A DNA stretch of 64,000 nt from PVC group bacterium (GCA_003551625.1 PUNC01000133.1:30013-94012), one strand, 5' to 3'. Shown: positions 38,242 to 63,394, counted from the first letter of the stretch. The notes: generated by a model from the letters alone, not told the origin. Numbers and translations are program-made.

Positions 38242-38248
38242 AAAAGGT

Positions 38249-38835: not shown

Positions 38836-38901
38836 TTGATTATATATCATAGTAATCAACGATAAGGTACAATCGGTTAATGGGATTAATAGGGTATTTC
38901 T

Positions 38902-42090: not shown

Positions 42091-42094
42091 TAAT

Positions 42095-42110
42095 TGTTCC
42101 ACGGGGAACA
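42095..42110. promoter_or_regulatory. parS-like centromere site 1 (TGTTCCACGGGGAACA)
   Basis: 14/16 match to parS consensus TGTTNCACGTGAAACA. Immediately upstream of parAB. Confidence 0.65.
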
Positions 42111-42153
42111 TCCGCCGGTGAAAGAAAGGCGGATACATCTGCTTGAATGTAAT

Positions 42154-42169
42154 TGTTCCACGTGGAACA
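42154..42169. promoter_or_regulatory. parS centromere site 2 (TGTTCCACGTGGAACA, perfect palindrome)
   Basis: 15/16 to Bacillus-type parS. Perfect 16-bp palindrome. Confidence 0.75.
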
Positions 42170-42341
42170 TTCACATTTATCTTGCCCTGCTTCCTCGAAG
42201 GTGATTTAATCGAGTCTTTGGAGCGGTTGTTCGTTCCGTTGTTCTTAAAAACCGCGCGCGGCGTTAATAAATGCGGGTCTTTTCAGGCACAATGTTCAAG
42301 GAAGAACTCTCCTGTTCAACCCGGAAATCCTGGGGGCGGAT

Positions 42342-43178: not shown

Positions 43179-43195
43179 AGGAGCGATCTGAAAAG

Positions 43196-44082: not shown

Positions 44083-44697
44083 ATGAACGAAAAACTGGAT
44101 AGTCTGCTGGAGAAGATCAACCGGGAAGGGGTGGAAAAAGCCGAGCAGAAAGCCGAGGAAATAACGTCCCGCGCCAAAAAAGAGGCAGAAAATAAACTTA
44201 ACCAGGCGAACGAAGAGGCCGGGAAGATAATTAAGGAAGCGGAAAAAGAAGCGGAGTCCACCAAAGAAAAGGGAATCAAGTCATTAAGACAGGCTTACCG
44301 GGACATAGTGATATCGATAAAAAAAGAGATCGGGGAGATATTCAGCCGGGTCTTGAAAGAAAAGGTCGCCGGGGCGCTTGGCGAAGAAGAACTCGCCGGA
44401 ATTTTGAAGGAAGTAATCGCAAAATGGTCGGAAGAGGGCGGACAGGAAACAATTGTCTATCTTAACGAAGAGACCGCTAAAAAGATCGGCGATACGATCC
44501 TGGCCGGACTCCAGAAAAAAATCAAGGAAGGGGTGGAGATCAAGCCTTTAAGGGATATCGATGCCGGATTTATGGTCAGTTTCGACGGGGGAAGATCAAG
44601 GATCGATTTTACCGATGACGGGGTGGCTGAGTTCATCCGGGCCCAGGCAAGCCCGCGGTTGATGGCGGTTTTGGAAGAAGGTTCCGATGAGGGGTGA
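44083..44697 (+). CDS. atpE: V-type ATP synthase subunit E
   Basis: 204 aa; K/E/A-rich N-terminal coiled coil plus globular C-terminus. First gene of the V-ATPase operon. Confidence 0.7.
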   Translation: MNEKLDSLLEKINREGVEKAEQKAEEITSRAKKEAENKLNQANEEAGKIIKEAEKEAESTKEKGIKSLRQAYRDIVISIKKEIGEIFSRVLKEKVAGALGEEELAGILKEVIAKWSEEGGQETIVYLNEETAKKIGDTILAGLQKKIKEGVEIKPLRDIDAGFMVSFDGGRSRIDFTDDGVAEFIRAQASPRLMAVLEEGSDEG

Positions 44698-45229
44698 ATA
44701 CTATTACTTCGCGGCCACCCTGCCGATGTTGTCGTTTGAAGATGGGCCACGGTTAAATGTCGAGGAGTTTCTCGCCCGTGCTCAAGAGCAACTTTCTCCG
44801 GACGACTACGCGGCCCTGTCTTCGGTGCGCCTGGTACCCCGTTATCCGGCCTCGGGGCTGACGGCCGCGGGAAGAGACTGGTACGATTTTGAAACCGCCT
44901 TGAGAAACGAGATCGCCTCCGACCGGGCGCGGAGGGAACGTCGCGATCCGGACAAGCACCTGCGGGGGGAATACCGCCCCGACCCGTTTCTGGCCGATTT
45001 CGTCGGTGAAGCCGCCGGTGAAGAAAACCCGCTCAAGATTGAGGAAAGCCTCAACCGGAAACGATGGGAGAAGCTTGAGGAGATCGAGCTGAACAATTTT
45101 TTTAATATTACCTTTTTGACGGTTTATTATCTCAAACTTCAACTTTTGGAAAAGATCAACCGGATGACGCCGCCCGCGGGAGAGAAGATCCTGCTGGGAA
45201 TGCTTCCGGCGGAGGAGGAGGCCGAATAA
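44687..45229 (+). CDS. V-ATPase-associated DUF2764-like protein (occupies the slot between E and A, as in Chlamydia/spirochaete V-ATPase operons)
   Basis: 180 aa with no canonical C/F subunit features. Call based on operon position and size. Confidence 0.5.
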   Translation: MRGEYYYFAATLPMLSFEDGPRLNVEEFLARAQEQLSPDDYAALSSVRLVPRYPASGLTAAGRDWYDFETALRNEIASDRARRERRDPDKHLRGEYRPDPFLADFVGEAAGEENPLKIEESLNRKRWEKLEEIELNNFFNITFLTVYYLKLQLLEKINRMTPPAGEKILLGMLPAEEEAE

Positions 45230-47001
45230 TGAGCGATCGAGAAGGAAGGATCGTCGGGGTGAGCGGAAATATGGTGGTGGCCGAGTTCTCCGGCGATGTT
45301 ATGCAGAACGAGCTGGCCTACGCGGTAAGCGGGAAAGAAGAGCTCAAGGCCGAAGTGATCCGGGTAAGGGGGAATCTGGTCGAGATGCAGGTCTTCGAGA
45401 GCACCGACGGGCTCAGGGTGGGTGACGCCATCCGTTTCAGCGGGGGGCTGCTCTCGGTCAGTCTGGGGCCGGGCATACTCGCGCAGGTTTATGACGGTCT
45501 CCAGAATCCTCTCCACCTGCTGGCCGAAGAGCACGGCTTCTTTCTTAAAAGAGGCTCCTATTTGACTCCGCTTGACGAGGAAAAAAAATGGGAGTTCAAT
45601 CCCGATATCGATACCGGTTCCCGGGTCCAGGGCGGCGACTGGATCGGCTGGGTTCAGGAAGGTATCTTCAAGCACCGGATAATGGTTCCTTTCGCTCTTG
45701 ACGGCGATTGGAAGATTAAAAAGATCGCGGAGAAAGGATCGTACCGGGTCGAGGACACGGTCGCCGAGCTGAAAAATTCCCGGGGTGATTCCAGGAAAGT
45801 CACTCTGATGCAGGAGTGGCCGGTCAAGATCCCGATAACCGCCTACCGGGAGAAACTAAGGCCGAAAGAGCCGTTGATCACCAAAATCCGGATCGTGGAC
45901 ACGATTACCCCGATCGCCCGGGGTGGGACCTACTGCATCCCCGGTCCCTTCGGCGCCGGGAAGACGGTGCTGCAGCAGATCACCAGCCGCCACGCCGAAG
46001 TCGATATTGTTGTGATCGCCGCCTGCGGAGAGCGGGCCGGCGAGGTGGTGGAGACGTTGAGGGAGTTCCCGGAACTGGAGGACCCCCGGACCGGCCGCTC
46101 CCTGATGGAGAGGACGATCATAATCTGCAATACCTCCTCGATGCCGGTGGCCGCCCGGGAGTCAAGCGTCTACACGGCGGTCACCATTGCCGAGTATTAC
46201 CGCCAGATGGGGCTCAACGTGCTGTTGCTGGCCGATTCCACCTCCCGCTGGGCCCAGGCGATGCGGGAGATGTCCGGGCGGCTGGAGGAGATCCCCGGCG
46301 AGGAGGCATTCCCGGCTTATCTGGAATCTAGGATCGCGTCCTTTTACGAACGGGCCGGCATCGTCCGGCTCAACGACAACTCGATCGGCTCGATCACCAT
46401 CGGCGGCACGGTCAGCCCGGCGGGGGGGAACTTCGAGGAGCCGGTCACCCAGTCCACCCTGAAAGTGGTGGGGGCGTTTCTGGGGCTCTCGCGGGAGCGC
46501 TCCGACGCCCGCAAGTATCCCTCGGTCGATCCTCTGGATTCCTGGAGCAAGTATGACAGCTTCATCGATTCCGGCCAGGTCCAATTCGCCCGGGAGCTGC
46601 TCTTCCGTTCCTCCGAGATCGACCAGATGATGAAGGTGGTGGGAGAGGAAGGGACCACTCTGGGCGATTTCGTCGATTATCTCAAGGGTGATTTCATCGA
46701 CGACGTTTATCTGCAGCAGAACGCTTACGACAAGGTGGAAGGGGCGACCTCGGCCGAGCGGCAGACCCACGTGTTCGGGGTGCTGGTCCGGATCCTGAAA
46801 TCGGAGCTCAAGTTCGAGGACAAGGACGACGCCCGCCACTTTTTCCAGGAGATCCGGCAGGATTTCCGCAACTGGAATTACGCCGAATGGGAGACCGACG
46901 AATTCAAAGAACTTGAAAAGAAGCTGCTGGAGAAAGTATCGGCCAAGGCGGAGGCCGGGATCGGGGAAGAAAGCGATGAGAAAAGTCTACAGCCGAATTG
47001 A
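45229..47001 (+). CDS. atpA: V-type ATP synthase catalytic subunit A
   Basis: Walker [10 protein letters not shown]. 590 aa with the non-homologous insert region typical of V/A-type A subunits. Confidence 0.92.
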
Positions 47002-48412
47002 ACAGATCGTCGGAGACGTGATTATGGTGGAGGCCGAAGGGATCGGCAACGAGGAGCTGGCCGCTATCACCACCTCCCGCGGCGTCTCCCTGGCCCAGGT
47101 CATCAGGCTCGATCGGACCCGGGTCTATCTCCAGGTATTCGCGGGCAGCCGCGGGGTCTCCACCGGGGACCAGGTAAGGTTCCTGGGCCACCGGATGCGG
47201 GTCCCCTTCACCGAAAACCTGCTGGGAAGGATCTTCGACGGCAGCGGCCGGCCCCGCGACAACGGGCCGGACCTGATGGAGAATATGATCGAGATCGGGG
47301 GCCCCTCGGTTAATCCCGCCAAGAGGATCATCCCCACGCGGATGGTCCGGACCGGAATCCCGATGATCGACGTCTTCAACTCCCTGGTCGTCAGCCAAAA
47401 GCTGCCGATTTTCTCCGTGGCCGGCGAACCCTACAACGAGCTGCTGGCCCGGATCGCGATGCAAGCCGAGGTGGATATCATCATCCTGGGCGGGATGGGG
47501 CTCAAGCACGACGACTACCTCTTCTTCCGCGACACTCTCGACGACCAGGGGGCGCTCTCCCGATCGATCTTCTTCATCCATACCGCAGCCGATCCCACCG
47601 TGGAGTGCATCCTGATCCCGGATATGAGCCTGGCGGTCGCCGAGCAGTTCGCCCTCCAGGGCAAGGAGGTGCTGGTCCTTCTGACCGATATGACCAACTT
47701 CTCCGACTCCCTCAAGGAGCTTGCCATCACGATGGAGCAGATCCCCTCCAACCGGGGCTATCCCGGAGACCTTTACAGCCAGCTCGCCCGCCGCTACGAG
47801 AAGGCGGTGGACTTCGAGGGAGCGGGCTCGATCACCGTCCTGGCGGTAACCACGATGCCGGGCGATGACGTCACCCACCCCATCCCCGACAATACCGGCT
47901 ACATCACCGAGGGCCAGTTTTATCTCCGCAACGGCAGAATCGAACCTTTCGGTTCCTTGAGCCGGCTCAAGCAGAACGTCAACAAGGCTACCCGCGAAGA
48001 CCATCGCACGATAATGAACTCGATGATCCAGCTCTATGCCGATTACAAGGAGACCTTGGAGAAACAGGCGATGGGTTTCGCGATGAGCCGGTGGGACGAG
48101 AAGCTTCTCAACTACGGCCGGGCCTTCGAGGAGGGAATGATGTCGCTGAAGGTGAACATCCCTCTGGAGGAAGCCCTCGACCGGGGATGGAGAATCCTGG
48201 CCGACGTATTCGAGCCGGAGGAGACCGGGATCCGCAGCGGGATGATCTCGAAGTTCTGGCCCGGCGGCAACGGCGGGAGGGAGCCGGAAAGAAAGGCCGG
48301 GGACGGGAGCGGGGATGAAGGCGGAGAAGACGCCGGCGGGGAGGAAAAGAAGGAAAGCGCCGATGGGGAAACAGAGAAGGAAAAGGATTCGAAAGAGAAC
48401 CATAAAACATAA
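46976..48412 (+). CDS. atpB: V-type ATP synthase subunit B
   Basis: [18 protein letters not shown]... B-subunit fold without an intact P-loop. ATG at 46976 chosen over the upstream ATG of the track ORF. Confidence 0.88.
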
Positions 48413-49026
48413 TGGCCCGCCGGAAAATAAAACTGACCAAGGGGGAACTCAAGCGGCAGCGGGATTCGCTGTCGCGTTACGAGCGCTATCTGCCCACCCT
48501 CCAGCTCAAACAGAAGCTTTTGCAGGCGGAGATGCGCCGGCTGGAGGCGGAGCTGGCCGCCCGCCGTCGCGAGCTTGAATCGGAGCTGGAGACCGCCCGG
48601 GGCTGGGCGGCGGTTCTGGCCGGCGGCGAGGTCGATCTTTCCCCCTGGACGGCTCCCGAAGAGATAAAGACCGAGACCGAGAACGTGGCGGGCGTGAACG
48701 TGCCGGTCTTTCGGGAGGTCGTCTTCAAGGAGGCCGATTACGACCTGTTCCTGACCCCCTTGTGGACCGAGAAGGCCCTCCGGGCGATCCGGTCCCTGGT
48801 CCGTCTCCGGGTGGAGGAGTCGGTTCTCGCCCGCCGCCGCGGTCTGATCGGGCGGGAATTGAGGACGACCATGCAGCGGGTCAATCTCTTTGAGAAGGTG
48901 ATGATTCCGGCCGGCCGGGAGAATATCCGCGTGATCAGGATCTACCTGGGAGACCAGGACGCCAACGCCGTCGGGCGGAGCAAGATCGCCAAGAAGAAGA
49001 TCGAGCAGGCCGCCGCCGCGGCGTGA
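48412..49026 (+). CDS. atpD: V-type ATP synthase subunit D
   Basis: [20 protein letters not shown]... coiled-coil central-stalk subunit of about 200 aa. Confidence 0.85.
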   Translation: MARRKIKLTKGELKRQRDSLSRYERYLPTLQLKQKLLQAEMRRLEAELAARRRELESELETARGWAAVLAGGEVDLSPWTAPEEIKTETENVAGVNVPVFREVVFKEADYDLFLTPLWTEKALRAIRSLVRLRVEESVLARRRGLIGRELRTTMQRVNLFEKVMIPAGRENIRVIRIYLGDQDANAVGRSKIAKKKIEQAAAAA

Positions 49027-49037
49027 GGGAATAAGCT

Positions 49038-50822
49038 GTGATCATCGCGATGAAAAAGGTGACGATCGTGGTTTTGGACCGGTACCGGGAGCAGGCCCTG
49101 GAACGGCTGGCCGGTCTCGGACTGGTCCATCTCGGACACGTCCGGCCGCCTTCGGGCGAACCCGTGGAGGAGATTCAGTCCCGGATCGGCCGGATCTCCC
49201 GGGCGCTGGAGATTCTTCCCGAGGGGGAAGGGGAATCCGGGGATCCCCCCCCGCCGGACTGGGAGGAGTTTTTCGAGCGGGTGGTCTCGCTGCGGGACGA
49301 GACGTCGAAGCGGCGGGAGCGGCGGCAGCGCCTGCAGGCCCGGATCGACTTCTGGAAGTATTGGGGCGACTTCGATCCTTCCCTTCTCGCCCGCCTGAGA
49401 AACCGGGGCGTTCACGTCCATCTGGCCGCCGTTCCCGAAAAGGAGCTCTCCGCGGTCGATCCCGGCGTGGCGGTGGAGAGGCTTTTCAAGCGGGGGCCGA
49501 CGGTTTACTGCGTTCTGGTCTCGGACCGGGAGCGTGAATTTCCCTTTGAAACGCTCCCGCCCCCCGACCGGAGCCTGACGGAGATGCGGTCCGCGGCGGA
49601 GGAGGAAGACCGGGCGATCGCGGCCGCCCACCGGGAGCTCGAAAAGCTCTCCTCCCGGCGGCCGGCTCTGGAGCGGCTCTTGGAAAGCAGCCTCTCCGGG
49701 CTGGAGTTCGAGCGGGCCCGGGCCGGGATGGGAGAGTCCGGCCGGCTGGCCTACCTGCGCGGTTTCTGTCCGCGAGATCAGCTTGGGAGGCTGGAGCAAG
49801 CCGCCGCCGCCGCCGGCTGGGGCCTGCTGGTCGAGGATCCCGGCCCGGACGACCGGCCGCCCACACTGGTGACCAACCCCAAATTCGTCAGCCTGATCAA
49901 ACCGGTCCTCGACTTCATCGACGTCGTCCCCGGCTACCGGGAGGTCGATCCCAGTTTCGTCTTCCTCTTCTTCTTCTCGATCTTCTTCGCGATGCTGATC
50001 GGCGACGCCGGCTACGGAGCGATCTTCCTGGCCGCCGCCGGACTGGCCCACTGGAGGCTGGGGCCGCGGCTCAAGGACAAGAAGCCTCTATTTCTGCTCT
50101 ACCTCCTGGCCGGGACCACCGTGGTCTGGGGAGTCCTGACCGGGACCTACTTCGGCCAGGAGTGGCTGCCGGCCACCGTGACCGGTTTCGTTCCCTGGAT
50201 GCGCCAAGACGACAACATCATCTGGCTCTGCTTCCTGGTCGGGGCGATCCAGCTCACGATCGCCCATTCCTGGCGTGCGCTTCGGAAGGCGCCCGACCTC
50301 ACCGCCCTGGCCGATCTCGGCTGGATCTGCGTGATCTGGATGATGTATTACGTGGCCGGAATGTTTATCCTCGGCCGCCAGTTTCCGCCCGCGGCTTTCG
50401 CCCTGGGCGGGCTGGGAGTGCTGCTGCTGGTGGTCTTCTCGATCCCTCCCCGCCGATTCTTCCAGGAGCTGATCCCGAGGAACTTCGCCCTGTTTTTGCA
50501 GATAATTTCCAGCTTTGCCGACGTGGTCTCCTATATCCGTCTCTTCGCGGTCGGTCTGGCCACCGTCGCCATCGCCGACGCCTTCAACTCGATGGCGGCC
50601 GGCCTGGGCTGGTCCAATATCGCCGCCGGCTTCGGAACGGCTTTTATTCTCCTGTTCGGACATATTCTCAATATGATTCTTTGCGGGATGGCGGTCCTGG
50701 TCCACGGTGTCCGTCTCAACGTGCTGGAGTTCTCCAGCCATCTGGGAAACGAGTGGTCGGGCGAGAGATACCGCCCCTTCCGGGCCACCCGGCTCGGGAG
50801 CGACCCGGAGGTCTCGACGTAG
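49038..50822 (+). CDS. atpI: V-type ATP synthase subunit I (membrane a-subunit)
   Basis: Hydrophilic N-terminal half plus C-terminal multi-TM half. Conserved Arg in penultimate helices. Confidence 0.85.
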   Translation: MIIAMKKVTIVVLDRYREQALERLAGLGLVHLGHVRPPSGEPVEEIQSRIGRISRALEILPEGEGESGDPPPPDWEEFFERVVSLRDETSKRRERRQRLQARIDFWKYWGDFDPSLLARLRNRGVHVHLAAVPEKELSAVDPGVAVERLFKRGPTVYCVLVSDREREFPFETLPPPDRSLTEMRSAAEEEDRAIAAAHRELEKLSSRRPALERLLESSLSGLEFERARAGMGESGRLAYLRGFCPRDQLGRLEQAAAAAGWGLLVEDPGPDDRPPTLVTNPKFVSLIKPVLDFIDVVPGYREVDPSFVFLFFFSIFFAMLIGDAGYGAIFLAAAGLAHWRLGPRLKDKKPLFLLYLLAGTTVVWGVLTGTYFGQEWLPATVTGFVPWMRQDDNIIWLCFLVGAIQLTIAHSWRALRKAPDLTALADLGWICVIWMMYYVAGMFILGRQFPPAAFALGGLGVLLLVVFSIPPRRFFQELIPRNFALFLQIISSFADVVSYIRLFAVGLATVAIADAFNSMAAGLGWSNIAAGFGTAFILLFGHILNMILCGMAVLVHGVRLNVLEFSSHLGNEWSGERYRPFRATRLGSDPEVST

Positions 50823-50943
50823 CCGCTCGGCGCGATTTGGAAGAGTTTTAAAGATAGAGTATTGAGAACATAACAACAGGCCCGGGGCGGCCGAAACGCC
50901 CGATGGGAGCAGTGACGGCCCGGGCCGGGAAAGGAGAAAGCGG

Positions 50944-51390
50944 ATGGAAGTCTTGACCCAATTTCAGGACCTGGGCCTCGCCGCCGTTCTGGCGATGGCG
51001 GCGGTAGGCTCGGCTCTCGGCACCGGCGCGGCCGGGATGGCGGCGGTCGGTTCCTGGAAGAAGTGTTTCGCCCAGAACAAGGCGGCCCCCTTCATCCTCA
51101 CCGTATTCGTCGGCGCGCCGCTCTCCCAGACGATCTACGGTATGATCGTGATGCAAACCCTGGTCGCGGCGGTGGCCGAGGGCGGGCAGTTCTTCTGGTC
51201 GGCGGGTCTGCTGGGCGGCCTGGCCATCGGGATGAGCGCCTGGATGCAGGGCCGGGCCGGCGCCGCCGCCGCCGACGCGATGGCCGAGACCGGCAAGGGC
51301 TTCGGCAACTACATTATGGTCCTGGGTATCATCGAGACCGTAGCTCTTTTCGTGATGGTCTTCACCATAATGGCCGTGGGCGGCCTATAA
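50944..51390 (+). CDS. atpK: V-type ATP synthase proteolipid subunit K (c subunit)
   Basis: 148 aa, Gly/Ala-rich TM hairpins, conserved carboxylate-bearing C-terminal helix (IIETVALFVMVFTIM). Confidence 0.85.
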   Translation: MEVLTQFQDLGLAAVLAMAAVGSALGTGAAGMAAVGSWKKCFAQNKAAPFILTVFVGAPLSQTIYGMIVMQTLVAAVAEGGQFFWSAGLLGGLAIGMSAWMQGRAGAAAADAMAETGKGFGNYIMVLGIIETVALFVMVFTIMAVGGL

Positions 51391-54643: not shown

Positions 54644-55453
54644 TCAGAAAGCGAACAGGGCGCCGAGTGCGAAGGAGATAAATTCCACTTCGCCCACGCC
54701 GCCGTAGCCGTTGTTGTAGGAGATCTCGACGTCGGCACCCAGTCTCTCGGTGAAAAAGTATTCGGCGCCGATCCCGATCCGGGCCGCGAGGCCGGAGCTT
54801 GAATTCGATTTCGTTCTATGGGTGATACTTTCGTACCCCCTTCCTAAACTCAGGTCGTGGGTCTCAACTCTCGCCCACTCGTCCCAGCTTCTCCGGATCC
54901 CCATATAACCCAGTCCGAGGACGAAGAATGGGCGAAGACCGAAGTCGGGAACATAAAACTTCGCGTTGAGCGTGATGTCGTAAACTTCTACACCCCCATC
55001 CACCATCGTGTCCACATAGTCTGTTGAATTAGGAAAAAACCTCCGGAAGGAATCGTCGCCTTTGAGGTCGTATTTCAAATGCCACCGGAAAGCGGTCTCC
55101 AGGGCGATCCAGTCGCGCAGCAGATAACCGACCTTGGCCTGAAAGCCGAAACCGTCATCGACCTTGGGTTCGATCCGGCGCAGATAGGGCTCCCGCCCCC
55201 AGTAATCCACCGCCGGCACTCCGATGGTGTCGCCGCGGCCGTGACGGAGGTTATAGATCCCGCCGAGACCGAGATAGAAACGTCTCTCCGGGCGATATCG
55301 GAGTTGGCTCATCTCTTCCGGGTGCAAATCCTGATGTCGCCGGGCGGGAACGCCGGAATAGACCCTCGGATATTCTCCCTCCCCTGGAAGCGCCGGGGGG
55401 AGGAGAAGCAGGGAGGCGCCCGCTAAGAGAAGGGCAAGCTTGAGGATTTTCAT
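54644..55453 (-). CDS. outer-membrane beta-barrel protein (OmpW/OmpA-like beta-barrel domain)
   Basis: Signal peptide MKILKLALLLAGASLLLL, beta-strand periodicity, C-terminal ...FALGALFAF beta-signal. Confidence 0.7.
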   Translation of the reverse strand: MKILKLALLLAGASLLLLPPALPGEGEYPRVYSGVPARRHQDLHPEEMSQLRYRPERRFYLGLGGIYNLRHGRGDTIGVPAVDYWGREPYLRRIEPKVDDGFGFQAKVGYLLRDWIALETAFRWHLKYDLKGDDSFRRFFPNSTDYVDTMVDGGVEVYDITLNAKFYVPDFGLRPFFVLGLGYMGIRRSWDEWARVETHDLSLGRGYESITHRTKSNSSSGLAARIGIGAEYFFTERLGADVEISYNNGYGGVGEVEFISFALGALFAF

Positions 55454-55538
55454 ATCTGACGACACTCCATCTTCGGGTTTTGAGAGAAGAAGGGGAGGAG
55501 ATCCGCCCGATCCCTTATAAGGCCGCCGGCGGCGGAGA

Positions 55539-56402
55539 TCAACGTTTATTTCGCCGGCGCGGCCGGCGGAGGGGGCGATGCCAGACGTTCATCGACTCCA
55601 GCCGGCCGCAGATCTGGGTGTTGTTCCACAGGGTTCCGCCGAAACGCCAGCCGGCGCGGGCGAAGGTGATGTTCATTCCGTAGGAGCGGGCGCGGGCGAT
55701 CGTGTAGCCGGTTCGGTATCCCTCCCGGGCCAGGTCTTTCTCCATCCGCGCCAGCAGCCGCCGGGCCAGGCCGCCGCGCCGGCGGACCGGCCGGGTGGCG
55801 AAATCGGTCATCTCCACCGCGTTGGCCTCCGGGTCCATCTCGGCCGAGGCCAGGGCGACCAGCCGGTCGTCATCCCAGACGCCGTAGTAGCGCACCCGTC
55901 TATCCATCATCCGGCGCAGGAAAGAGGGGTCGTGGATGGGGAAGGGGTAACTCTCGAAAACCGAACGGTAAAGTGCGGCGGCCTCGCCGGCATCGTTTTT
56001 CTCCAGTTCCCGCAGGGTCAGCCCCCGAGCCGGCGGTACGGCGGCCGGCCCGCCGTTGGCGCGTTTGCGGGAGACCTTCAGGACCTCGGCCACGGTCTTC
56101 CGGTCGCCCGCCGCCCGAGCCTTATTCGTGTAGAAGACCAGGAAATCGGCCGCGGTCCGGCCCCGGAAATAGCCGGGCACCCGGGCCTCGGGCGCGTAGC
56201 CCGCCTCCAGGAAAGCCTCGGCGACATCGGCGGGAACCTTGGCGAAGACCTTACCGTAGCCGCGTTCGCGGGCCAGGTCGATCAGCCGGCCGGGGAGTTC
56301 GGGGAGGTCGGAGTCGGACAGCCGCATCAGGTAGATCCGCCGGTTGGAGGGACCGTGCTGAATCCGGGAGGCCCCGATTATCTCCACCCGATCGGCACTC
56401 AT
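55539..56402 (-). CDS. ablB: GNAT acetyltransferase, putative beta-lysine N6-acetyltransferase AblB
   Basis: 287 aa (own start at MSADRVEIIG, ATG 56400-56402) with C-terminal GNAT fold. Same operon as the lysine 2,3-aminomutase. The 625-aa track ORF is an artefact extending through the transporter gene. Confidence 0.65.
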   Translation of the reverse strand: MSADRVEIIGASRIQHGPSNRRIYLMRLSDSDLPELPGRLIDLARERGYGKVFAKVPADVAEAFLEAGYAPEARVPGYFRGRTAADFLVFYTNKARAAGDRKTVAEVLKVSRKRANGGPAAVPPARGLTLRELEKNDAGEAAALYRSVFESYPFPIHDPSFLRRMMDRRVRYYGVWDDDRLVALASAEMDPEANAVEMTDFATRPVRRRGGLARRLLARMEKDLAREGYRTGYTIARARSYGMNITFARAGWRFGGTLWNNTQICGRLESMNVWHRPLRRPRRRNKR

Positions 56403-57886
56403 CGCGCCCCCCCGGGTTCGGAAGGCGTGGCGGCCGCCGGGGCCGGGGTCAGGAGCGAGACGCCGACGAAGAATACCGCGGAAGCGGCCATCCCGAAGAC
56501 GACCGGGGAGAAGCCGGCTCCGAAGAAGAACGACTCGAGCGCGGCGGGCAGGGAGCCGCGGAAAAACTGGAGCAGGTTGGTCAGGATTCCGCCCGCCAGC
56601 ATACCCGCCAGCGCCCCGGCGGAGCTGGCCCGCGGCCAGAAGAAAGCGCCGAGGGTCGGCACGAAGAGGCCGGCGACAAGAAAGCCGTAGGCGTCGAAGA
56701 CCCCTTCGATCACCGTCTCCAGGCGGAGAGCGTAGTAGACCGCCGTCACCCCGAGGATGAGGGTTACGACGCGGGAGACGCGGATCATCTTCAGGTGGGA
56801 GGCTCCCCGGAAGAAGTAACGCTGCAGAAAGTCGCCCACGACATTGCCGGAGGAGGCTACCAGGCAGCTGTCGGCGGTGGACATTATGGCCGAGAAGTAG
56901 GCGGCGGCGACCACGCCGGTGATCCCGATCGGAAGAACCTCGTTGATCAGTCGCGGCAGCCCCAGCTCCTGTCCTCCCTCCACCCCGATCAGCTCCGGGT
57001 ACATCGCCCGGGCGCACATTCCCAGGATGACCCCCATAAAGGCCATTACCGGGTATTCGAAGAAGCCGGCGATATACCAGGCCTTGCGCCCCTCCTTCAC
57101 GCCCCGGCAGGCGTAGATCCGCTGGTAGATCGTCATCCCGACCAGCCAGATGGGAATGATCGTTACCATCCAGTTGATGAAGGTGACGGTCTCGATGTTG
57201 CGCAGGGAGAAGAACTCGGCCGGCAGGGTCTCCCGCAGGCCCGCCCAGCCCCCGACCTCCCGCAGGGCCAGGGGAATGGCCAGCGCGATCAGGCCGAAGA
57301 GCAGGATCAGCCACTGGACGAAGTCGGTGTAGATTACGGCCTTGATCCCGCCCATAACCGTGTAAACGACGATGATGAATCCCATCGCGTAGAGTGAGAA
57401 GAGGAAGGGGTCCCACCCGAACGGCGAGGTTCGGAAGACCGTCTCCGAGGCCAGGGTGGCGCCGGCCTGAATCTGGGAACCGGTGAACATCAGGTAACCG
57501 ACCGCGGAGATGACGGCGGCGAGCAGGGCGACACGGTTGTCGTAGCGCCAGCGGAGAAAGTCCGGATAGGTCAGCATCTTCCGGGCCAGGTCCGGCCCCT
57601 TGATCCGGGGGATGATAAAGACGGCGGTCAACCAGGCCCCGACCAGGCCGGTGAAGAGCAGCCAGGAACCGGCCAGCCCCATCAGGAAGCCCAGTCCCCC
57701 CAGTCCGATCGAGAAGCCGCCGCCGACGTCGGTGGCCACGATCGACAGCCCGAGCGCGGTCGGCGGGATCCGGCGTCCCCCGACGTAGTAGTCATCCTCG
57801 TCGCGGTTGCGGCGGTAGTGATAGTAACCCACCCCGAGGATCACCGTCATATAAAGAGCGAAAATCAGGTAGTCAAAGGCATACAT
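56399..57886 (-). CDS. sodium:solute symporter family (SSF) transporter
   Basis: 13 predicted TM segments; SSF N-terminal pattern (MYAFDYLIFALYMTVILGVGYY...YYVGGR). ATGA overlap with ablB. Confidence 0.85.
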   Translation of the reverse strand: MYAFDYLIFALYMTVILGVGYYHYRRNRDEDDYYVGGRRIPPTALGLSIVATDVGGGFSIGLGGLGFLMGLAGSWLLFTGLVGAWLTAVFIIPRIKGPDLARKMLTYPDFLRWRYDNRVALLAAVISAVGYLMFTGSQIQAGATLASETVFRTSPFGWDPFLFSLYAMGFIIVVYTVMGGIKAVIYTDFVQWLILLFGLIALAIPLALREVGGWAGLRETLPAEFFSLRNIETVTFINWMVTIIPIWLVGMTIYQRIYACRGVKEGRKAWYIAGFFEYPVMAFMGVILGMCARAMYPELIGVEGGQELGLPRLINEVLPIGITGVVAAAYFSAIMSTADSCLVASSGNVVGDFLQRYFFRGASHLKMIRVSRVVTLILGVTAVYYALRLETVIEGVFDAYGFLVAGLFVPTLGAFFWPRASSAGALAGMLAGGILTNLLQFFRGSLPAALESFFFGAGFSPVVFGMAASAVFFVGVSLLTPAPAAATPSEPGGAR

Positions 57887-57938
57887 CCCGGTATTCCAAT
57901 CAGCCCGGATTATTCATATTGGACGACGGACGCCATTG

Positions 57939-59324
57939 CTAACGCCGCCGGAAGATTCTTCTCAGCCGCCCGGCCAGGCCGTTTCCTCCCGGCCTTCCGG
58001 CCGAACTCCGCCCGTCGCCGTTGTCGCCGCGCCGATCGATGCGCCGGGTATCGGCCGGGACCAGCGAAAGCGCCTCGTCGTGGTCGGCCAGCAGGGACTC
58101 GATCCCGAGAGCCTGGTATTCTTCGGCCTCGTCAAGCTTGAGCGAGAGGCGGCACTTATCGCAGTCCCGGTCGCAGAAGACCGGCCGGTAGGAGTCGGGT
58201 TCCTTGTAGGTGGTGATGACCCCCTCGAAATTGCGGAGGACGACCTTGTTGGTGTTCCACGAGATCAGGTATTGCGGCATCACCGGGATCTTTCCGCCTC
58301 CTCCGGGGGCGTCGATGACATAGGTCGGCACCGCCAGTCCGCTGGTATGTCCGATCAGGCTCTCGACGATCTCGATGCCCTTGCCGACCGGGGTGCGGAA
58401 ATGGCTGAGTCCTTCCGACATATCGCATTGAAAAAGGTAGTAGGGCCGGACCCGGTTCTGGACCAGCTTGTGAACCAGTTTGCGCATTATGCGCGGGCAG
58501 TCGTTGATCCCGGCAAGAAGCACGGTCTGGTTCCCCAGGGGAATGCCGGCGTCGGCCAGCCGCGCCAGCGCCTGCCGCGAGGAGGCGGTGATCTCGCGGG
58601 GGTGGTTGAAGTGGGTGTTGACCCAGACGGGCTGATGGCGCTTGAGCATCTCGACCAGGTCCCCGGTGATCCGGTAAGGCAGCACGACCGGCATCCGGGT
58701 CCCGATCCGGACAATCTCGACGTGTTCGATCGCGTCCAGCTCGGTCAGGATCCAGTCGAGGTAGTCGTCGGAGAGCATAAAGGGATCCCCTCCCGAGAGC
58801 AGGACGTCGCGCACGGCCGGGGTCTTCCGGATGTAGGCCAGCCCCATGTCCAACACCTGCCGCCCGGGAATGAAGTCGCGGTCGCCGACCCGCCGCTTGC
58901 GGGTGCAGTGGCGGCAATACATCGAGCAGAGATTGCTGACCTGGAAGAGAACCCGGTCGGGGTAGCGGTGGGTGATGCCGGGGGCGGGGCTGTCCTTGTC
59001 CTCGGCCAGCGGGTCGGACATATCCCCGGGCAGGATCTCAAGCTCGGCGGCCTGGGGGAAGGCCTGGTAGAAGATCGGGTCGTTGGCGTAGTCCTTGACT
59101 TCGATCAGCGACAGGTAGTAGGGGGTGATCGAGAGTGGAAAGCGGGCCAGGGTGGCCTCGAGCTTTTCGCGCCGCTCGGCGTCGAACCGGATGCCGAGCA
59201 GCTTCTCGAAGGTGGGTATGTCGCGGATCGAGTGCTTGATCTGCCATTTCCAGTCGCGCCAGAGGTTCAGGCCGTCCTTGACGTCAAGGCGCTCCGCCAG
59301 ATCGTGATGGCGGTTTTCGATCAT
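57939..59324 (-). CDS. ablA: lysine 2,3-aminomutase (radical SAM, KamA/AblA family)
   Basis: CxxxCxx[15 protein letters not shown]-binding region, conserved RIGTRMPVV. Long form of 461 aa. Confidence 0.88.
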
Positions 59325-59496
59325 GGTATTTTCCTGTGTTTTCGAGAATACGCCGGACCGGTGCGGCGCCTTCCGGGCGCCGGGGCGGCCCGGACGCGGT
59401 TTGATCCCGGCGGCATACTGGGCACAACCGGGGGAGATACTTGGGGTACGACGGATGTGAGGGGACTTTTAAGTATATGAGGAACCGGCGGCGGCG

Positions 59497-60771
59497 TCAA
59501 CCCCGTTTCAGGAAACAGCAGGCTTCGATATGCGGGGTGTGGGGGAAGAAGTCGGGCAGCAGGATCTTCGCGATTTGGTACCGGGGAGATAGGCGCTTTA
59601 GGTCCCGAAGGAGCGTGGAAGGGTTGCAGGAGATGTAAACGATTGCCGGAGGGGGTTTTTCGGCGACCGCCGCGATCAGCTCTTCCCGGACCCCCGCGCG
59701 GGGCGGGTCCAGCAACAGCAGGTCGGCCTCGGCGGCCAGGACGTCGCCGATCAGTCTTTCGCTTCTTCCCCGCCGCGCCGTCAAGTTTCCGGTCCGGTTG
59801 AGGGCGGCGTTCCTTTTCAGGAAGGAAAAATTGCTCCGGCCGGATTCCACGGCCAGGACCTCTTCGACCTCCCCCGCCAGGGCGATCCCGAAGACGCCGA
59901 CGCCGCTGTAGAGATCGGCCAGGCGGTTGACCTTCCGCTCGCGGACGAAGCCGCGGACCGCCTTGATGACTTCTTCCAGCAGCGGAAGGTTGACCTGGAA
60001 GAACGAAAGCGGCCCCGCGGCCAGCACCGCCCCGCCCGCGGCCTCGCGGAGATAACTCCGTCCCCGGGCCCGGATGCCGCCGGGGACGGCGCGGTCGCGG
60101 GTGTGGATGACAATCCCGGCCGTCGCCGGGTCGATCCCGCGCAAAGCTTCCGCCAGCCCGTCGGCCTCCCGGCGTCCTTTGACCACCAGCGCCGCGACCG
60201 AACGGGACTCGCGGCTGCTGTCGCGGGCGATCAGCTCTTCGATCGTCCCCATCTTTGTTTTTCCCAGCGCCGCCGGCAGTTCGGCCAGGAGCCGGTTGAG
60301 CCGGTCGGCGAGAAGGGCGCAGCTTTCGACCGGCACGAACTCGTCCCGCCGGCCGGGGCGGTGGTAGGCCCAGGTCGGCCCGTCTCCGAAGTCCCGGACC
60401 CGGAGATGGACCTTGTTGCGGTAGTTCCAGATCCGCGGCGAGGGGAGGACCTCGATCCCGGGCGGCTCCCCCCCCAGAAACCGGCCGAACATCTCGCGGA
60501 ACTGGGACTCCTTGAGTTCGAGCTGGGCGGAGTAGTCGAGACACTGGTAGGGCGAGCAGGTCCGCCAGTGACCGCAGCGGGGGGAGACCCGGCGCGGAGA
60601 AGGCTCGATAATCTTTTCTGTGGTCGCCTCGAGATAGTCCTTCCGCGAACGGGCGATCGCGATTTCGACCAGCTCGCCGGGCAGCCCTTCGTCGGTGAAC
60701 AGGGTCTTGCCTTCGAGGCGGGCCAGGGAACGGCCGGGATAGACGATCTTTTCGATCCGGATTCTGATTAT
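59497..60771 (-). CDS. rlmD: 23S rRNA (uracil-C5)-methyltransferase RlmD/RumA family (TRAM + 4Fe-4S + MTase); start codon unresolved
   Basis: C-terminal MTase motifs (DLYSGVGVFG, DPPRAG, nucleophile Cys in YISCNPSTL). Own translation upstream of the track ATG (60492) continues in-frame through TRAM and the Cys cluster (CGHWRTC...C) with no ATG/GTG/TTG until a stop at 60865. 60771 is a putative ATA. Confidence 0.6.
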   Translation of the reverse strand: MIRIRIEKIVYPGRSLARLEGKTLFTDEGLPGELVEIAIARSRKDYLEATTEKIIEPSPRRVSPRCGHWRTCSPYQCLDYSAQLELKESQFREMFGRFLGGEPPGIEVLPSPRIWNYRNKVHLRVRDFGDGPTWAYHRPGRRDEFVPVESCALLADRLNRLLAELPAALGKTKMGTIEELIARDSSRESRSVAALVVKGRREADGLAEALRGIDPATAGIVIHTRDRAVPGGIRARGRSYLREAAGGAVLAAGPLSFFQVNLPLLEEVIKAVRGFVRERKVNRLADLYSGVGVFGIALAGEVEEVLAVESGRSNFSFLKRNAALNRTGNLTARRGRSERLIGDVLAAEADLLLLDPPRAGVREELIAAVAEKPPPAIVYISCNPSTLLRDLKRLSPRYQIAKILLPDFFPHTPHIEACCFLKRG

Positions 60772-60793: not shown

Positions 60794-61621
60794 TCAGTCG
60801 CCGACCAGGTTGAGGGTGATCGCCGCCACCAGGGAGTTGAGCGCCCAGTCGCGTTTTTCCGGCGGCAGGGTCAGCCCCAGCGACTTGGCGACGGTCTGGA
60901 AGTCCCGCAGCTGCCGGGCGACGGAGTGCTTGTTGGCCCAGCCGTGCCAGAAGGAGACCACGCCGGCGATCAGGTCGGAGTTGTCGCGGATGAATTTCCA
61001 GGCGGGCCGGGCCTTTTTCGAACGCGAGGGGCGGGCCCCGAAGATGTCTTCCAGGTCCTCCCGGTAGTCATTCCAGTTCTTTCGCAGCTCCATATTCCGC
61101 CTTAGCCGCGCCATCTCTTCGGGGCCCAGCCGGGCGCCGATGATTTCGCGGCGCCGCCGGTGGCGGACGGCGATCATAAAGTAATGGGGCTGGCCGCGCC
61201 GGTCGTCCCGCTCCGGAGCCGCGCCCCAGCGGCGCTTGAGGGTCCGGGGGCTGATAAAACCCGGCTTCTCGCCCTTGGCCGGGTCGAGGACTCCGATCTT
61301 TCCCTGCCAGAAGGCCACCGCCGCGATCCAGTGGTCATCGTTGTCGACCGAGAGCACGCAGGGGATGTCCCGGGCGGTGTAACGCCTCAGGACGCGGAAG
61401 GCGATCTCAAAGTCCCGGAAATTCCGGAGCGTTCCCCGGCAGCCGAAATGGGACAGGGCCTTGAGAAGCTTGTTCTCGTCGGCGCCGTCGGCCCGGGTGG
61501 TCCGGGTGCGGTGGCGGAGTTCCTTCTCCTTCACCTTGAGTCCGATAACGGTGAGGGCGTATTTAATCGAGGCGGCTCCGCAGGAGTACGATTTTTCCTG
61601 TTCGGCGAATCCCATAATCAC
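60794..61621 (-). CDS. hypothetical protein with N-terminal C39-like (papain-fold) peptidase domain
   Basis: QEKSYSCGAASIKYALTVIG resembles the C39 Q-x5-CG-A motif. Downstream DDHWIAAV is His-containing. C-terminal about 120 aa unassigned. Confidence 0.45.
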   Translation of the reverse strand: MIMGFAEQEKSYSCGAASIKYALTVIGLKVKEKELRHRTRTTRADGADENKLLKALSHFGCRGTLRNFRDFEIAFRVLRRYTARDIPCVLSVDNDDHWIAAVAFWQGKIGVLDPAKGEKPGFISPRTLKRRWGAAPERDDRRGQPHYFMIAVRHRRRREIIGARLGPEEMARLRRNMELRKNWNDYREDLEDIFGARPSRSKKARPAWKFIRDNSDLIAGVVSFWHGWANKHSVARQLRDFQTVAKSLGLTLPPEKRDWALNSLVAAITLNLVGD

Positions 61622-61762
61622 CCGCGGCGGTCAGGTTTCAGATCAAGCTCGTTCATTCCGGAATAATATATCACCGCCTTCTTGCGGTGGAAATCAAATC
61701 CTCTACGGGCCCCGCTCCTTCAGGGTGACTGACTGCGGTCAAACCCTTCACTCGCGGAGTTT

Positions 61763-63394
61763 ATGCTGGAATGTACGGCTACGAAAATGTTGCCCGAAAG
61801 CCTAATAGATACGATAATGTATGATATGAGCGAGAAAACTGGAGATCATCAGGTTCGCAGGGAGGTCAAGGAGCTGCTGCTCCTCTTCGAGATCAGCCGG
61901 ATACTGGAAGGAAGCCTGGATCTCAGGCAGTCGATTCCCCCGGTATTGGAGGCCATCGCCCGGCATATGGGGATGCTTCGGGGCACGATCACCCTTCTCA
62001 ACCGCCAGACCGGCGAGATCTTCATCGAGGAGGCCTACGGGCTTTCGGCGAGCCAGAAGCAGAAAGGGCGTTATCGGCTCGGCGAAGGGGTCACCGGCAA
62101 GGTGATCGAGACCGGAACCCCGGCGGTGGTTCCCCGGATATCGGAAGATCCGCGTTTCCTCGACCGGACCGGAGCCCGGCGGGGTGGGGTCGGCGGGGAG
62201 ATCAGTTTCATCTGCGTTCCGATCAAGATGGGCGCCGAGGTAATGGGGGCCCTCAGCGTGGACCGGCCCTTCAGCGGGGACCTGGCCTGCGAGGAGGATA
62301 TTCGCCTGCTCTCCATCATTTCGTCGCTGATCGCCCAGGCGGTCCGGCTGCGGCGGGCCGTCCAGGAGGAGAAGCAGCGGCTGGTTGACGAGAACCTGAG
62401 GCTGAAAAGAGAGCTGGGGGAAAAATTCCGTCCCTCCAACATTACCGGCAACTCGCGGGCGATGCGGGCGGTCTACGAGCAGATCGCTCAGGTCTGCCGC
62501 TCCGAGACCACGGTTTTGATCCGGGGAGAGTCCGGCACCGGCAAGGAGCTGGTCGCCCACGCCATCCACTACAACAGCCCGCGGGCCGGAAGGCCTTTCA
62601 TCCGGGTCAGCTGCTCGGCGCTTCCGGAGACGGTGGTGGAGAGCGAGCTTTTCGGTCACGAGCGCGGCGCCTTCACCGGGGCGGTCAGCCGCCGCAAGGG
62701 CCGCTTCGAGCTGGCTCACGGCGGCACTCTCTTCCTCGACGAGATCGGGGATCTCTCGCCCGCGATCCAGATCAAGCTGCTGCGCGTTCTCCAGGAAAAA
62801 GAATTCGAGCGCGTCGGGGGGACCGGGACCGTCAAGGTCGACGTCCGCCTGATCGCCGCCACCAACCGGCCGCTGGAGAAGCTGATCGAGGAGGGGGACT
62901 TCCGCTCCGATCTTTACTACCGGCTCAACGTCTTTCCCATCCACATCCCGCCCCTGCGGGAGCGGAAGACCGACATCCCCCTTCTGGCCGATCATTTCGT
63001 CGAGAAATACAGCCGCGCCAACGGCAAGCATATCCGGCGCATCTCCACCCCCGCCATCGATATGCTGATGGCCTACCACTGGCCGGGAAATGTCCGGGAG
63101 CTGGAAAACTGCATCGAGCGGGCGGTCCTGGTCAGCGTCGACGACGTCATCCACGGCCATTACCTCCCCCCCACGCTTCAGACCGCCGAGGCCAGCGGCA
63201 CCGCCCCCCCCGGCGACCTCCCCGCGATCCTGGAAGCGGAAGAGAAGGAGATGATCCTCGACGCCCTCAAGTCTTCCCGGGGAAACCGCGCCCGGGCGGC
63301 CCGGGCCCTGGGAATCTCGGAACGGGTGATGGGTTTGAGGGTGAAGAAATACGGCCTTGAACCGAAGAAATTCCGGGCATGGACCCGCGCTTGA
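61763..63394 (+). CDS. sigma-54-dependent transcriptional activator with N-terminal GAF domain (NifA-like) and C-terminal Fis-type HTH
   Basis: AAA+ Walker A GESGTGKE, GAFTGA sigma-54 contact motif, ESELFGHE, C-terminal HTH (GNRARAARALGISERV). Confidence 0.88.
   Translation: MLECTATKMLPESLIDTIMYDMSEKTGDHQVRREVKELLLLFEISRILEGSLDLRQSIPPVLEAIARHMGMLRGTITLLNRQTGEIFIEEAYGLSASQKQKGRYRLGEGVTGKVIETGTPAVVPRISEDPRFLDRTGARRGGVGGEISFICVPIKMGAEVMGALSVDRPFSGDLACEEDIRLLSIISSLIAQAVRLRRAVQEEKQRLVDENLRLKRELGEKFRPSNITGNSRAMRAVYEQIAQVCRSETTVLIRGESGTGKELVAHAIHYNSPRAGRPFIRVSCSALPETVVESELFGHERGAFTGAVSRRKGRFELAHGGTLFLDEIGDLSPAIQIKLLRVLQEKEFERVGGTGTVKVDVRLIAATNRPLEKLIEEGDFRSDLYYRLNVFPIHIPPLRERKTDIPLLADHFVEKYSRANGKHIRRISTPAIDMLMAYHWPGNVRELENCIERAVLVSVDDVIHGHYLPPTLQTAEASGTAPPGDLPAILEAEEKEMILDALKSSRGNRARAARALGISERVMGLRVKKYGLEPKKFRAWTRA

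Follow-up and report, generated by a model that had tools for sequence, protein, structure and literature searches.

[quoted passage not shown] The cluster is a known pathway in a conserved variant with an embedded transporter, and very probably combines NeABL synthesis with a Na+-coupled importer dedicated to a solute related to the pathway. Many phyla share this gene order, the transporter gene overlaps or is fused to ablB at most junctions, and in some loci an ABC system takes its place.

Organization of the gene cluster

The three genes identified by ORF calling are co-oriented on the minus strand at 55539-59324, counted from the first base of the window, as the earlier note had described. 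The features of the region, in the direction of transcription, are:

59472..59500, minus strand, promoter-like site TTGACG-17-TATACT upstream of ablA, candidate operon promoter by consensus match alone
57939..59324, minus strand, ablA, lysine 2,3-aminomutase (radical SAM and PLP-dependent), 461 aa
57887..57938, minus strand, ablA-SSF spacer, 52 nt, no terminator-like site
56399..57886, minus strand, SSF transporter, 495 aa, 13 transmembrane helices
56399..56402, minus strand, ATGA overlap of the SSF stop and ablB start (translational coupling), read directly from the sequence
55539..56402, minus strand, ablB, beta-lysine N-epsilon-acetyltransferase, 287 aa, GNAT

The ablB start codon (ATG, 56402-56400) shares bases with the SSF stop codon (TGA, 56401-56399), and the ATGA overlap reported for the symporter and ablB is therefore present. 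The lack of a terminator-like site in the ablA-SSF spacer is consistent with a single transcript. AblB was assigned to one operon with the lysine 2,3-aminomutase, as their genes are on the same strand with no intervening terminator-like site and their order is kept in the fetched loci. The promoter-like site matches 10 of 12 consensus positions, is the sole site in the 4.4 kb searched (0.4 expected) and overlaps the end of the methyltransferase gene that precedes ablA; it may serve as the operon promoter. Na+ and c-di-AMP riboswitches precede some ablA genes (PMC9337991). A riboswitch upstream of ablA was rejected here, as Rfam gave no riboswitch at gathering thresholds in the whole window and no relevant match at E ≤ 1 over 55300-59700. 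The 146-nt ablA leader shows no unusual degree of structure (z = -1.5).

AblA and AblB

AblA scores 759 bits against the lysine 2,3-aminomutase model TIGR03820 (cut-off 525) and falls below the cut-offs of the sister models for glutamate 2,3-aminomutase (461 vs 650), arginine 2,3-aminomutase (349 vs 600) and EpmB (240 vs 369). Radical_SAM and LAM_C Pfam domains are present, with the radical-SAM motif at residues 133-143 (CSMYCRHC, of the form CxxxCxxC, at 133-140), in agreement with the long-form lysine 2,3-aminomutase recognised earlier, and a basic, low-complexity C-terminal tail of ∼45 aa extends past the family model. In an alignment with the Clostridium subterminale enzyme 2A5H (488 bits, E 2e-145), D301, D338 and K345 of AblA correspond to Asp293 and Asp330, the two residues that hold the epsilon-amino group of lysine, and to Lys337, the PLP lysine. 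The C-terminal Cys motif is also present. Judged from this alignment, the catalytic and lysine-binding residues are intact, and AblA is predicted to convert L-lysine to beta-lysine.

The product of ablB, which belongs to Pfam Acetyltransf_1, scores 314 bits against the AblB model TIGR03827 (cut-off 205). The match is full-length, with residues 12-278 covering model positions 2-266 of 266, and includes the family-specific N-terminal half. The identification of the GNAT as AblB, which a failure to score with this model would have undermined, thus stands, and acetyl-CoA-dependent epsilon-acetylation of beta-lysine is its predicted activity.

The C. subterminale enzyme is fermentative, and by sequence alone AblA would suit that role as well as osmolyte synthesis. 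In such a reading the aminomutase would be a KamA that starts lysine fermentation, with the GNAT and SSF as unrelated neighbours. We consider this hardly credible, because the GNAT passes the AblB equivalog model, the three genes travel together across phyla, and no lysine fermentation enzymes were recognised around ablA. The Pfam-annotated genes flanking the operon encode a TrmA-like methyltransferase, a C39-like peptidase, a sigma-54 activator and outer-membrane beta-barrel proteins, and do not include a kamA-kamDE-kdd-kce-kal cluster; lysine fermentation neighbours, named earlier as the sign that would count against an ablAB operon, were not found among the genes adjoining it. In the remainder of the window, where several ORFs between 1 and 30 kb lay outside the Pfam scan, no beta-lysine 5,6-aminomutase, Kdd, Kce or Kal was recognised by eye. 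Some homologous loci carry a divergent mutase, and its assignment to another amino-acid pathway was rejected because the two Asp residues that bind lysine are retained and, in some loci, its partner is a canonical AblB.

With one genome scanned per species, AblB was encoded in at least 575 genomes, mostly bacterial, and abl genes were described as widespread in bacteria and archaea in a 2024 paper (PMC11337218). The statement that the pathway is uncommon in bacteria was wrong.

The SSF transporter

The transporter matches PF00474 (163 bits) but reaches the cut-off of no specific NCBIfam model, so that it belongs to none of the named subfamilies. The nearest of these models is that of the proline symporter PutP (161 vs 515), and scores were lower for PanF (109 vs 328), ActP (36 vs 1099) and MctC (62 vs 670). 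An AlphaFold2 model (pLDDT 90.3, pTM 0.90) has 13 membrane-length helices in our own parsing of the DSSP helix list, in which two long DSSP helices were each divided into two, and so agrees with the 13-TM SSF symporter of the earlier note. Foldseek TM-scores to SGLT1, SGLT2 and SiaT are 0.77-0.82.

Residues A51/V54 and A333/S336/T337 align with the vSGLT Na2 site (A62/I65 and A361/S364/S365), and these positions, together with D53 and D188, are invariant in 58 SSF homologs. R256, which we count among the transport-cycle residues, is likewise invariant. Membership of the sodium:solute symporter family is established by the Pfam match, the 13-helix model and the conserved Na2 site, and sodium coupling, as predicted from these residues, is supported. 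The protein thus shares the LeuT-fold, 13 helices, Na2 residues and the second-helix Asp of PutP type with PutP/OpuE, vSGLT, SGLT1/2 and SiaT, but is only 20-24% identical to the structurally solved members of the family. It scores far below the PutP cut-off, and two invariant acidic residues, E277 and D339, are peculiar to its own family. The closest relative shares 86% identity and is from a contig with the prefix SL_3KL_010_SED, which we read as a soda-lake sediment sample.

Conservation of the ablA-SSF-ablB arrangement

Thirty-nine complete, independent loci in many phyla have the same gene order as the window. Among 80 AblB-seeded species loci, 20 have an SSF ortholog directly upstream of ablB, and these are spread over some dozen bacterial phyla; Verrucomicrobiota, Kiritimatiellae, Phycisphaerae, Lentisphaeria, Acidobacteriota, Calditrichia, Fibrobacteraceae, Myxococcales, Spirochaetia, Hydrogenedentota and Balneolaceae are included, as is the green sulfur bacterium Prosthecochloris ethylica. 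The SSF-linked AblBs do not form one clade, with ∼19 parsimony changes over 114 tips of a rough neighbour-joining tree, and a single origin for them was rejected because of this scatter.

Neighbour-joining of 96 SSFs places the window protein in a clade of 69 members, 63 of them with informative flanks. Nearly all of the latter (57/63) adjoin ablA and/or ablB or divergent homologs of these genes. Members that are stand-alone or accompanied only by a marR gene are few (L092, L104, L107, L113 and L132), and no shared theme was found among the neighbours of the stand-alone orthologs L092, L104 and L107.

The SSF and ablB genes overlap at 42 of 54 junctions and are fused in frame at a further 3. 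Five distinct SSF::AblB fusion proteins of 700-775 aa share 60-69% mutual identity, and in all five AblB begins ∼10 residues past the last helix. Fusions could not be counted reliably in a library clustered at 50% identity, where they merge into clusters represented by unfused proteins; its sole yields were a fusion fragment (P0373) and an AblA::AblB fusion (P0436). In the window SSF and AblB are separate proteins, presumably made in stoichiometric amounts; at least five other lineages have them joined in one polypeptide.

ABC importers and other neighbouring genes

Four loci (L036, L042, L067 and L069) have an ABC system, consisting of SBP_bac_3, permease and ATPase genes, exactly between ablA and ablB. 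In L066 an ABC system also lies between them, with ∼2.6 kb including an IS200-like ORF before ablB, and in L022, L050, L051 and L076 it is just upstream of ablA. The replacing systems are binding-protein-dependent and of the polar amino-acid type. Such systems act as importers, so that the slot between ablA and ablB encodes uptake. The binding protein gave matches to cystine, lysine/arginine/ornithine, glutamine and ectoine models, all below NCBIfam cut-offs, and it was rejected as a guide to the identity of the solute for that reason. The family to which these ABC systems belong also holds the ectoine binding protein EhuB.

Taken together, conservation, translational coupling, fusions and ABC replacement strongly support the proposed functional link between the symporter and the pathway, and the transporter gene did not come to lie in the operon by chance. 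Many homologous abl operons are preceded by a marR gene, and an MscS channel gene is located inside L001 and L066; neither marR nor mscS was found in the window. A sister SSF clade (∼50% identity) is found with an ornithine-racemase-like gene (313 bits to Orr), a small GNAT and an M20 amidohydrolase, which hints that the wider family may handle diamino acids and would favour lysine or beta-lysine as substrate.

Comparison with known osmolyte gene clusters

The ablAB operon is known from methanogens, among them Methanosarcina mazei (Pfluger et al. 2003, as cited in PMC9337991 and PMC3543383). The window matches it in both enzymes and in their order, each enzyme passes the equivalog model of the pathway, and the predicted product is likewise NeABL. 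However, the classical operon has nothing between ablA and ablB, whereas here a dedicated SSF gene is coupled to ablB. The plain ablA-ablB type was found in all sampled archaeal, Desulfuromonadales, Desulfobulbales and Clostridia loci. Bacterial ablAB genes are also present in Syntrophotalea (Pelobacter) carbinolica and in green sulfur bacteria.

Ectoine gene clusters carry interchangeable product importers of the ABC (Ehu), TRAP (Tea/Ueh) and SSS (EctI) types, together with the MarR regulator EctR and MscS, and EctI imports hydroxyectoine, glycine betaine, proline betaine and DMSP (PMC13342039). The abl loci collectively resemble them in combining osmolyte genes with swappable importers (SSS or ABC), a regulator of the MarR type and, in some loci, MscS, but the solute and the enzymes are different. 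The likeness drawn here between the window SSF and EctI is limited to genomic logic. Moreover, EctI genes flank the ect genes, whereas the abl SSF gene lies inside the operon, overlapped or fused with that of the last enzyme.

Proposed function

AblA would convert L-lysine to beta-lysine, and AblB would use acetyl-CoA to acetylate the epsilon-amino group of beta-lysine, giving a zwitterionic osmolyte. The SSF, which would be made in fixed proportion with AblB by way of the ATGA overlap, may draw on the sodium gradient to return to the cell NeABL that had leaked out or been released by neighbouring cells. By analogy with the EctI, Ehu and Tea importers encoded beside ectoine genes, such uptake might spare synthesis under salt stress. 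What the analysis establishes is the identity of the genes, their conserved order, the SSF-ablB coupling with its fusions, and the fold and Na+-site residues of the transporter; salt induction, the inward direction of transport and the substrate are what we infer. NeABL itself is the likeliest substrate, a plausible choice that falls somewhat short of probable, and we advance only tentatively, as the best overall explanation, that the SSF takes up or recaptures the acetylated solute by Na+ coupling. The hint of diamino acids in the sister clade, the few stand-alone clade members and the lack of marR and mscS in the window count against this explanation, and the tight coupling or fusion to AblB is a better fit for beta-lysine delivery or a regulatory complex than for simple salvage of the product.

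If the SSF instead imported L-lysine, AblA and AblB would be fed from outside and costly de novo synthesis avoided. The sister clade, with its ornithine-racemase-like enzyme and amino-acid-processing genes, the polar amino-acid type of the replacing ABC systems with their partial lysine/arginine/ornithine binding-protein matches, and PutP, an amino-acid carrier, as the nearest specific model are all in keeping with this, but every one of those matches is below its family cut-off and the ABC family includes EhuB. Coupling and fusion of the SSF also involve AblB and not the lysine-using AblA, and added lysine had little effect on the osmolyte pools of a halophilic methanogen (PMC1224877). Lysine import is rather unlikely, although both it and beta-lysine import are serious alternatives. 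In another reading SSF and AblB would act as a single physical unit, in which Na+-driven entry of a lysine-derived solute is directly coupled to its acetylation with acetyl-CoA or Na+/solute binding by the carrier switches AblB on and off; this too is unlikely, and slightly more so. The form in which a membrane complex acetylates imported beta-lysine or a close analogue on entry is less likely again. It agrees with the 45 of 54 junctions that are overlapping or fused and with the tethering of AblB close to the last helix, at the presumed cytoplasmic end, since the C-terminal end of 13-helix SSF proteins such as PutP is taken as cytoplasmic; transporter-enzyme fusions also usually pair a carrier with the enzyme that consumes the incoming compound. 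However, free beta-lysine is not known to be an abundant environmental solute, AblA of the same operon already makes beta-lysine inside the cell, and a single-base change where the two genes overlap could trivially have produced fusions that are merely tolerated.

A broader role, in which the SSF like EctI or OpuE takes several solutes (proline, betaines and others) and is merely co-regulated with NeABL synthesis, would follow the precedent of EctI and the distant similarity to PutP. We find it improbable because the clade is nearly exclusive to abl operons and translationally coupled to ablB, an association more specific than co-regulation needs. SSF domains are used as sensors by some histidine kinases, and the fusions to AblB and the fixed ratio of the two proteins could also reflect a protein that mainly senses Na+ or solute to regulate AblB, with little net transport. 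This is very improbable: the residues of the transport cycle (the Na2 site, D53, D188 and R256) are all invariant, and an ABC importer can occupy the same slot, an indication that selection acted on transport.

Significance of the SSF clade

In digesters and sediments, NeABL is linked to the tolerance of salt and of ammonia. It is a major osmolyte of methanogens and, going by these gene scans, probably of many anaerobic bacteria. A literature search found no described NeABL transporter and nothing on a transporter in abl operons or on the substrate of this SSF family; an earlier mention is possible in a 2011 paper on green sulfur bacteria. The SSF clade, near-restricted to abl operons in about a dozen phyla, provides a concrete candidate for a NeABL transporter, and its cultured carriers include Anaerohalosphaera lusitana (CP019791, locus L002) and P. 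ethylica N3 (L037). If the SSF imports NeABL, this osmolyte could be traded or scavenged in communities. If SSF and AblB form one unit, the pair would represent a type of transporter-enzyme module so far undescribed among compatible solutes, and beta-lysine or NeABL would gain its first identified transporter family; a physical complex would be a new way to couple uptake with modification. Import of NeABL would also allow the annotation of hundreds of loci to be sharpened. Present annotations of clade members often read just 'sodium:solute symporter', and one reads 'Na+/glucose symporter'.

Organization of the abl operon

[quoted passage not shown] The features are as follows.

57939-59324, minus strand, ablA, lysine 2,3-aminomutase (461 aa)
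56399-57886, minus strand, sodium:solute symporter family (SSF) gene (495 aa)
55539-56402, minus strand, ablB, GNAT acetyltransferase (287 aa)
59500-59472, sigma-70-like site TTGACG-17-TATACT in the 172-nt gap upstream of ablA

The genes are arranged head-to-tail, with 52 nt separating ablA from the SSF gene and an ATGA overlap in which the ablB ATG (56402-56400) and the SSF TGA (56401-56399) share bases 56401-56400. The earlier note had described this overlap and placed the operon at 55539-59324; both were borne out, the coordinates matching the ablB stop and ablA start exactly. No terminator-like sites were seen between the three genes, and the sigma-70-like site is the only one in 4.4 kb, where 0.4 are expected.

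AblA scores 759 bits against the NCBIfam equivalog TIGR03820 (cut-off 525) and is under the cut-offs for glutamate 2,3-aminomutase (461 vs 650 bits), arginine 2,3-aminomutase (349 vs 600) and EpmB (240 vs 369). The previously reported radical-SAM motif is present at residues 133-143. Alignment with the lysine 2,3-aminomutase of Clostridium subterminale (2A5H; 488 bits, E 2e-145) indicates that AblA retains the cysteines of the radical-SAM cluster, the PLP lysine, the two aspartates that bind lysine and the cysteine motif near the C terminus. Because AblA is so similar to this fermentative-type enzyme, fermentative KamA and osmolyte AblA are not separable by sequence alone and context must decide. 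No lysine-fermentation genes were recognised in the window, where several ORFs at 1-30 kb lay outside the Pfam scan, and a fermentative aminomutase is essentially excluded. The GNAT had been proposed to be AblB, and its failing AblB models was part of the refuting condition set in the earlier note; as it scores 314 bits along the whole length of the equivalog TIGR03827 (cut-off 205), this test does not refute the proposal. A natural AblA::AblB fusion protein (P0436, 717 aa) was also found, with 67% identity to the window AblA over residues 29-444 and 41% to AblB over residues 444-717.

An AblB alignment scan with one genome per species detected at least 575 AblB-encoding genomes, and the best 80 of these are overwhelmingly bacterial. 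The suggestion that the pathway is uncommon in bacteria was therefore not upheld, in agreement with a 2024 paper that already calls abl genes widespread among both bacteria and archaea (PMC11337218). Annotation of ablAB in Pelobacter carbinolicus dates from 2012 (PMC3543383).

The SSF protein

The SSF protein matches PF00474 (163 bits) but is far under the cut-off of every named subfamily (PutP 161 vs 515, PanF 109 vs 328, ActP 36 vs 1099). The 13 transmembrane segments counted previously agree with 13 membrane-length helices in a confident AlphaFold2 model built with 58 homologs (pLDDT 90.3, pTM 0.90), a count from our own parsing of the helix list in which two long DSSP helices were each split in two. 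Foldseek neighbours of the model are SGLT1, SGLT2, SiaT and CHT1 (TM-scores 0.77-0.82, 20-24% identity). In a profile alignment, A51/V54 and A333/S336/T337 correspond to A62, I65, A361, S364 and S365 of vSGLT, which we take to be the Na2 site. These residues, D53 and D188 are invariant in the 58 homologs, and the protein is therefore predicted to be a Na+-coupled carrier. The family-specific acidic residues E277 and D339 are likewise invariant. The closest relative (86% identity) is from a contig with the name prefix SL_3KL_010_SED, presumably a soda-lake sediment sample.

Transporters in other abl loci

That the embedded symporter is functionally tied to the abl pathway, as the earlier note suggested, is supported by five independent lines: recurrence, clade specificity, coupling or fusion to AblB, replacement by ABC systems, and osmotic accessory genes. 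The embedded transporter is thus meaningful.

Among the best 80 of the at least 575 AblB species genomes, an SSF ortholog (52-78% identity) is immediately upstream of ablB in 20. Carriers include Verrucomicrobiota, Kiritimatiellae, Phycisphaerae, Lentisphaeraceae, Victivallales, Acidobacteriota/Holophagae, Calditrichia, Fibrobacteraceae, Myxococcales, Spirochaetia, Hydrogenedentota, Balneolaceae and Prosthecochloris ethylica. Anaerohalosphaera lusitana, a halophile in culture, has the arrangement MarR-ablA-SSF-ablB, with the SSF annotated as 'Na(+)/glucose symporter'. All archaeal, Desulfuromonadales, Desulfobulbales and Clostridia loci in this sample have plain ablA-ablB. An SSF-seeded scan of metagenome contigs and a neighbour-joining tree of 96 SSFs resolved two clades, and in the window's clade (n=69) 57 of the 63 members with informative flanks adjoin ablA and/or ablB or divergent homologs.

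The SSF-ablB junctions (n=54) comprise 42 with a stop/start overlap, 3 in-frame fusions and 9 short gaps. Besides one fusion fragment, five distinct SSF::AblB fusions of full length (700-775 aa, mutual identity 60-69%) were found. In the fusion P0120, the AblB part starts ∼10 residues past the last helix and the former start methionine is retained.

In four fetched loci (L036, L042, L067, L069), a binding-protein-dependent, polar-amino-acid-type ABC system (SBP_bac_3, permease, ATPase) lies between ablA and ablB, and in four Desulfovibrio-like loci it is immediately upstream of ablA. Such systems are importers, and the slot therefore encodes uptake; 29 of the 80 AblB loci (36%) have an importer in the operon. 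The ABC system also occupies the slot in L066 (Verrucomicrobiota), with ∼2.6 kb before ablB in which an IS200-like transposase ORF followed by small ORFs (5864-6838) comes after the MscS-ABC block; this operon may be disrupted. A MarR gene precedes many transporter-bearing abl operons, and an MscS channel gene is inside those of L001 and L066. In a rough tree of AblB (∼19 changes, 114 tips), loci linked to an SSF or an ABC system are interspersed with one another and with plain ones, and the slot is therefore modular and not the legacy of one ancient insertion.

MarR-SSF pairs were also found with neither ablA nor ablB in the fetched flanks (L113, L132, L150, L152, L160). Their MarR is a homolog of the one that precedes ablA in other loci, suggesting that regulator and transporter can form a unit independent of the biosynthetic genes. 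A divergent module (L122 1988-6428; also L109, L114, L126, L110, L068) comprises MarR, a KamA-family mutase, an AblB-like GNAT (180 bits, under the 205 cut-off) and an SSF belonging to the window's clade (57-58% identity). The mutase is 36-44% identical to AblA and under the TIGR03820 cut-off, lacks the C-terminal Cys motif and keeps both lysine-binding Asp residues; in L068 and L110 it is paired with a canonical AblB. The sister SSF clade (∼50% identity) has a conserved cluster (L146 5001-11156) that recurs in ∼20 metagenome loci (L134, L135, L141-L149, L151, L153 and others). It encodes a small GNAT, an ornithine-racemase-like protein (313 bits, under the Orr cut-off), an M23 peptidase-like protein, an M20 amidohydrolase related to the CpsA and DoeB2 deacetylases, and an alanine racemase, and may handle D-amino acids, basic amino acids or their N-acetylated counterparts.

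Possible substrates of the carrier

In the established pathway, AblA forms beta-lysine from L-lysine, and AblB acetylates its epsilon-amino group with acetyl-CoA to yield N-epsilon-acetyl-beta-lysine. The operon very probably combines synthesis of this osmolyte with its own dedicated Na+-driven importer for a pathway-related solute. As substrate, the acetylated product is put forward tentatively, at somewhat under an even chance; the carrier would then bring in the finished solute, recapturing what has leaked or scavenging it from neighbouring cells. The strongest support is a near-perfect parallel with ectoine clusters, where EctR, a MarR regulator, and MscS channels are co-localised with SSS (EctI), ABC (Ehu) or TRAP systems that serve interchangeably to import the product (PMC13342039); abl loci are alike in their SSS/ABC importers, MarR and MscS.

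Import of lysine is unlikely, and would accord with the amino-acid character of the ABC systems that replace the SSF and with the ornithine-racemase-like, small GNAT, M20 amidohydrolase and alanine racemase genes beside the sister clade. Uptake of beta-lysine for immediate acetylation best accounts for a carrier joined to AblB and not AblA, but a plausible environmental source of beta-lysine is lacking and this substrate is distinctly improbable. A broad osmoprotectant importer is very improbable, and a sensing partner of AblB scarcely credible.

Relative to known ablAB operons, the locus is one more bacterial instance of the same pathway; it departs from the operons described so far in having a transporter of a dedicated clade that is tightly coupled to AblB. 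No paper describing this transporter was found in the literature, where an earlier mention is possible. Given the ectoine precedent the locus would not astonish a specialist, and it offers a concrete, testable transporter candidate and an unusual enzyme-transporter linkage.

Genomic context

The operon is adjoined by genes for a TrmA-like methyltransferase, a C39-like peptidase, a sigma-54 activator and two outer-membrane beta-barrel proteins. The C39-like peptidase domain protein (275 aa, without an ABC transporter part) is divergent from the GAF-domain sigma-54 activator (543 aa) at 60794-63394, and no connection of this pair to the abl operon is evident.

The remainder of the window includes replication-origin genes (29650-44053), with gyrA, gyrB, dnaN and dnaA on the minus strand and rnpA-like, yidC, mnmE, parA and parB on the plus strand. 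The GC content is reduced (52-55%) between about 36 and 46 kb, and the cumulative GC skew reaches its minimum near 34-36 kb, so oriC is probably in the dnaA-rnpA gap (37642-38248). Beside it is a complete V/A-type ATPase operon (44083-51390; A, B, D, I and c/K subunits identified by Pfam). Its c subunit (50944-51390) has, judged by eye, PLSQ...Q...ET residues that we take to resemble the Na+-binding set of Enterococcus hirae NtpK; such a putative Na+ pump would be in keeping with an importer coupled to Na+. The best named relatives of the window GyrB are Candidatus Aureabacteria (73%, 65%), then Omnitrophica and Kiritimatiellae. The window comes from an uncultured lineage allied to the PVC group. 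A single tRNA gene (26130-26216, plus strand) is the sole Rfam gathering-level match in the window.
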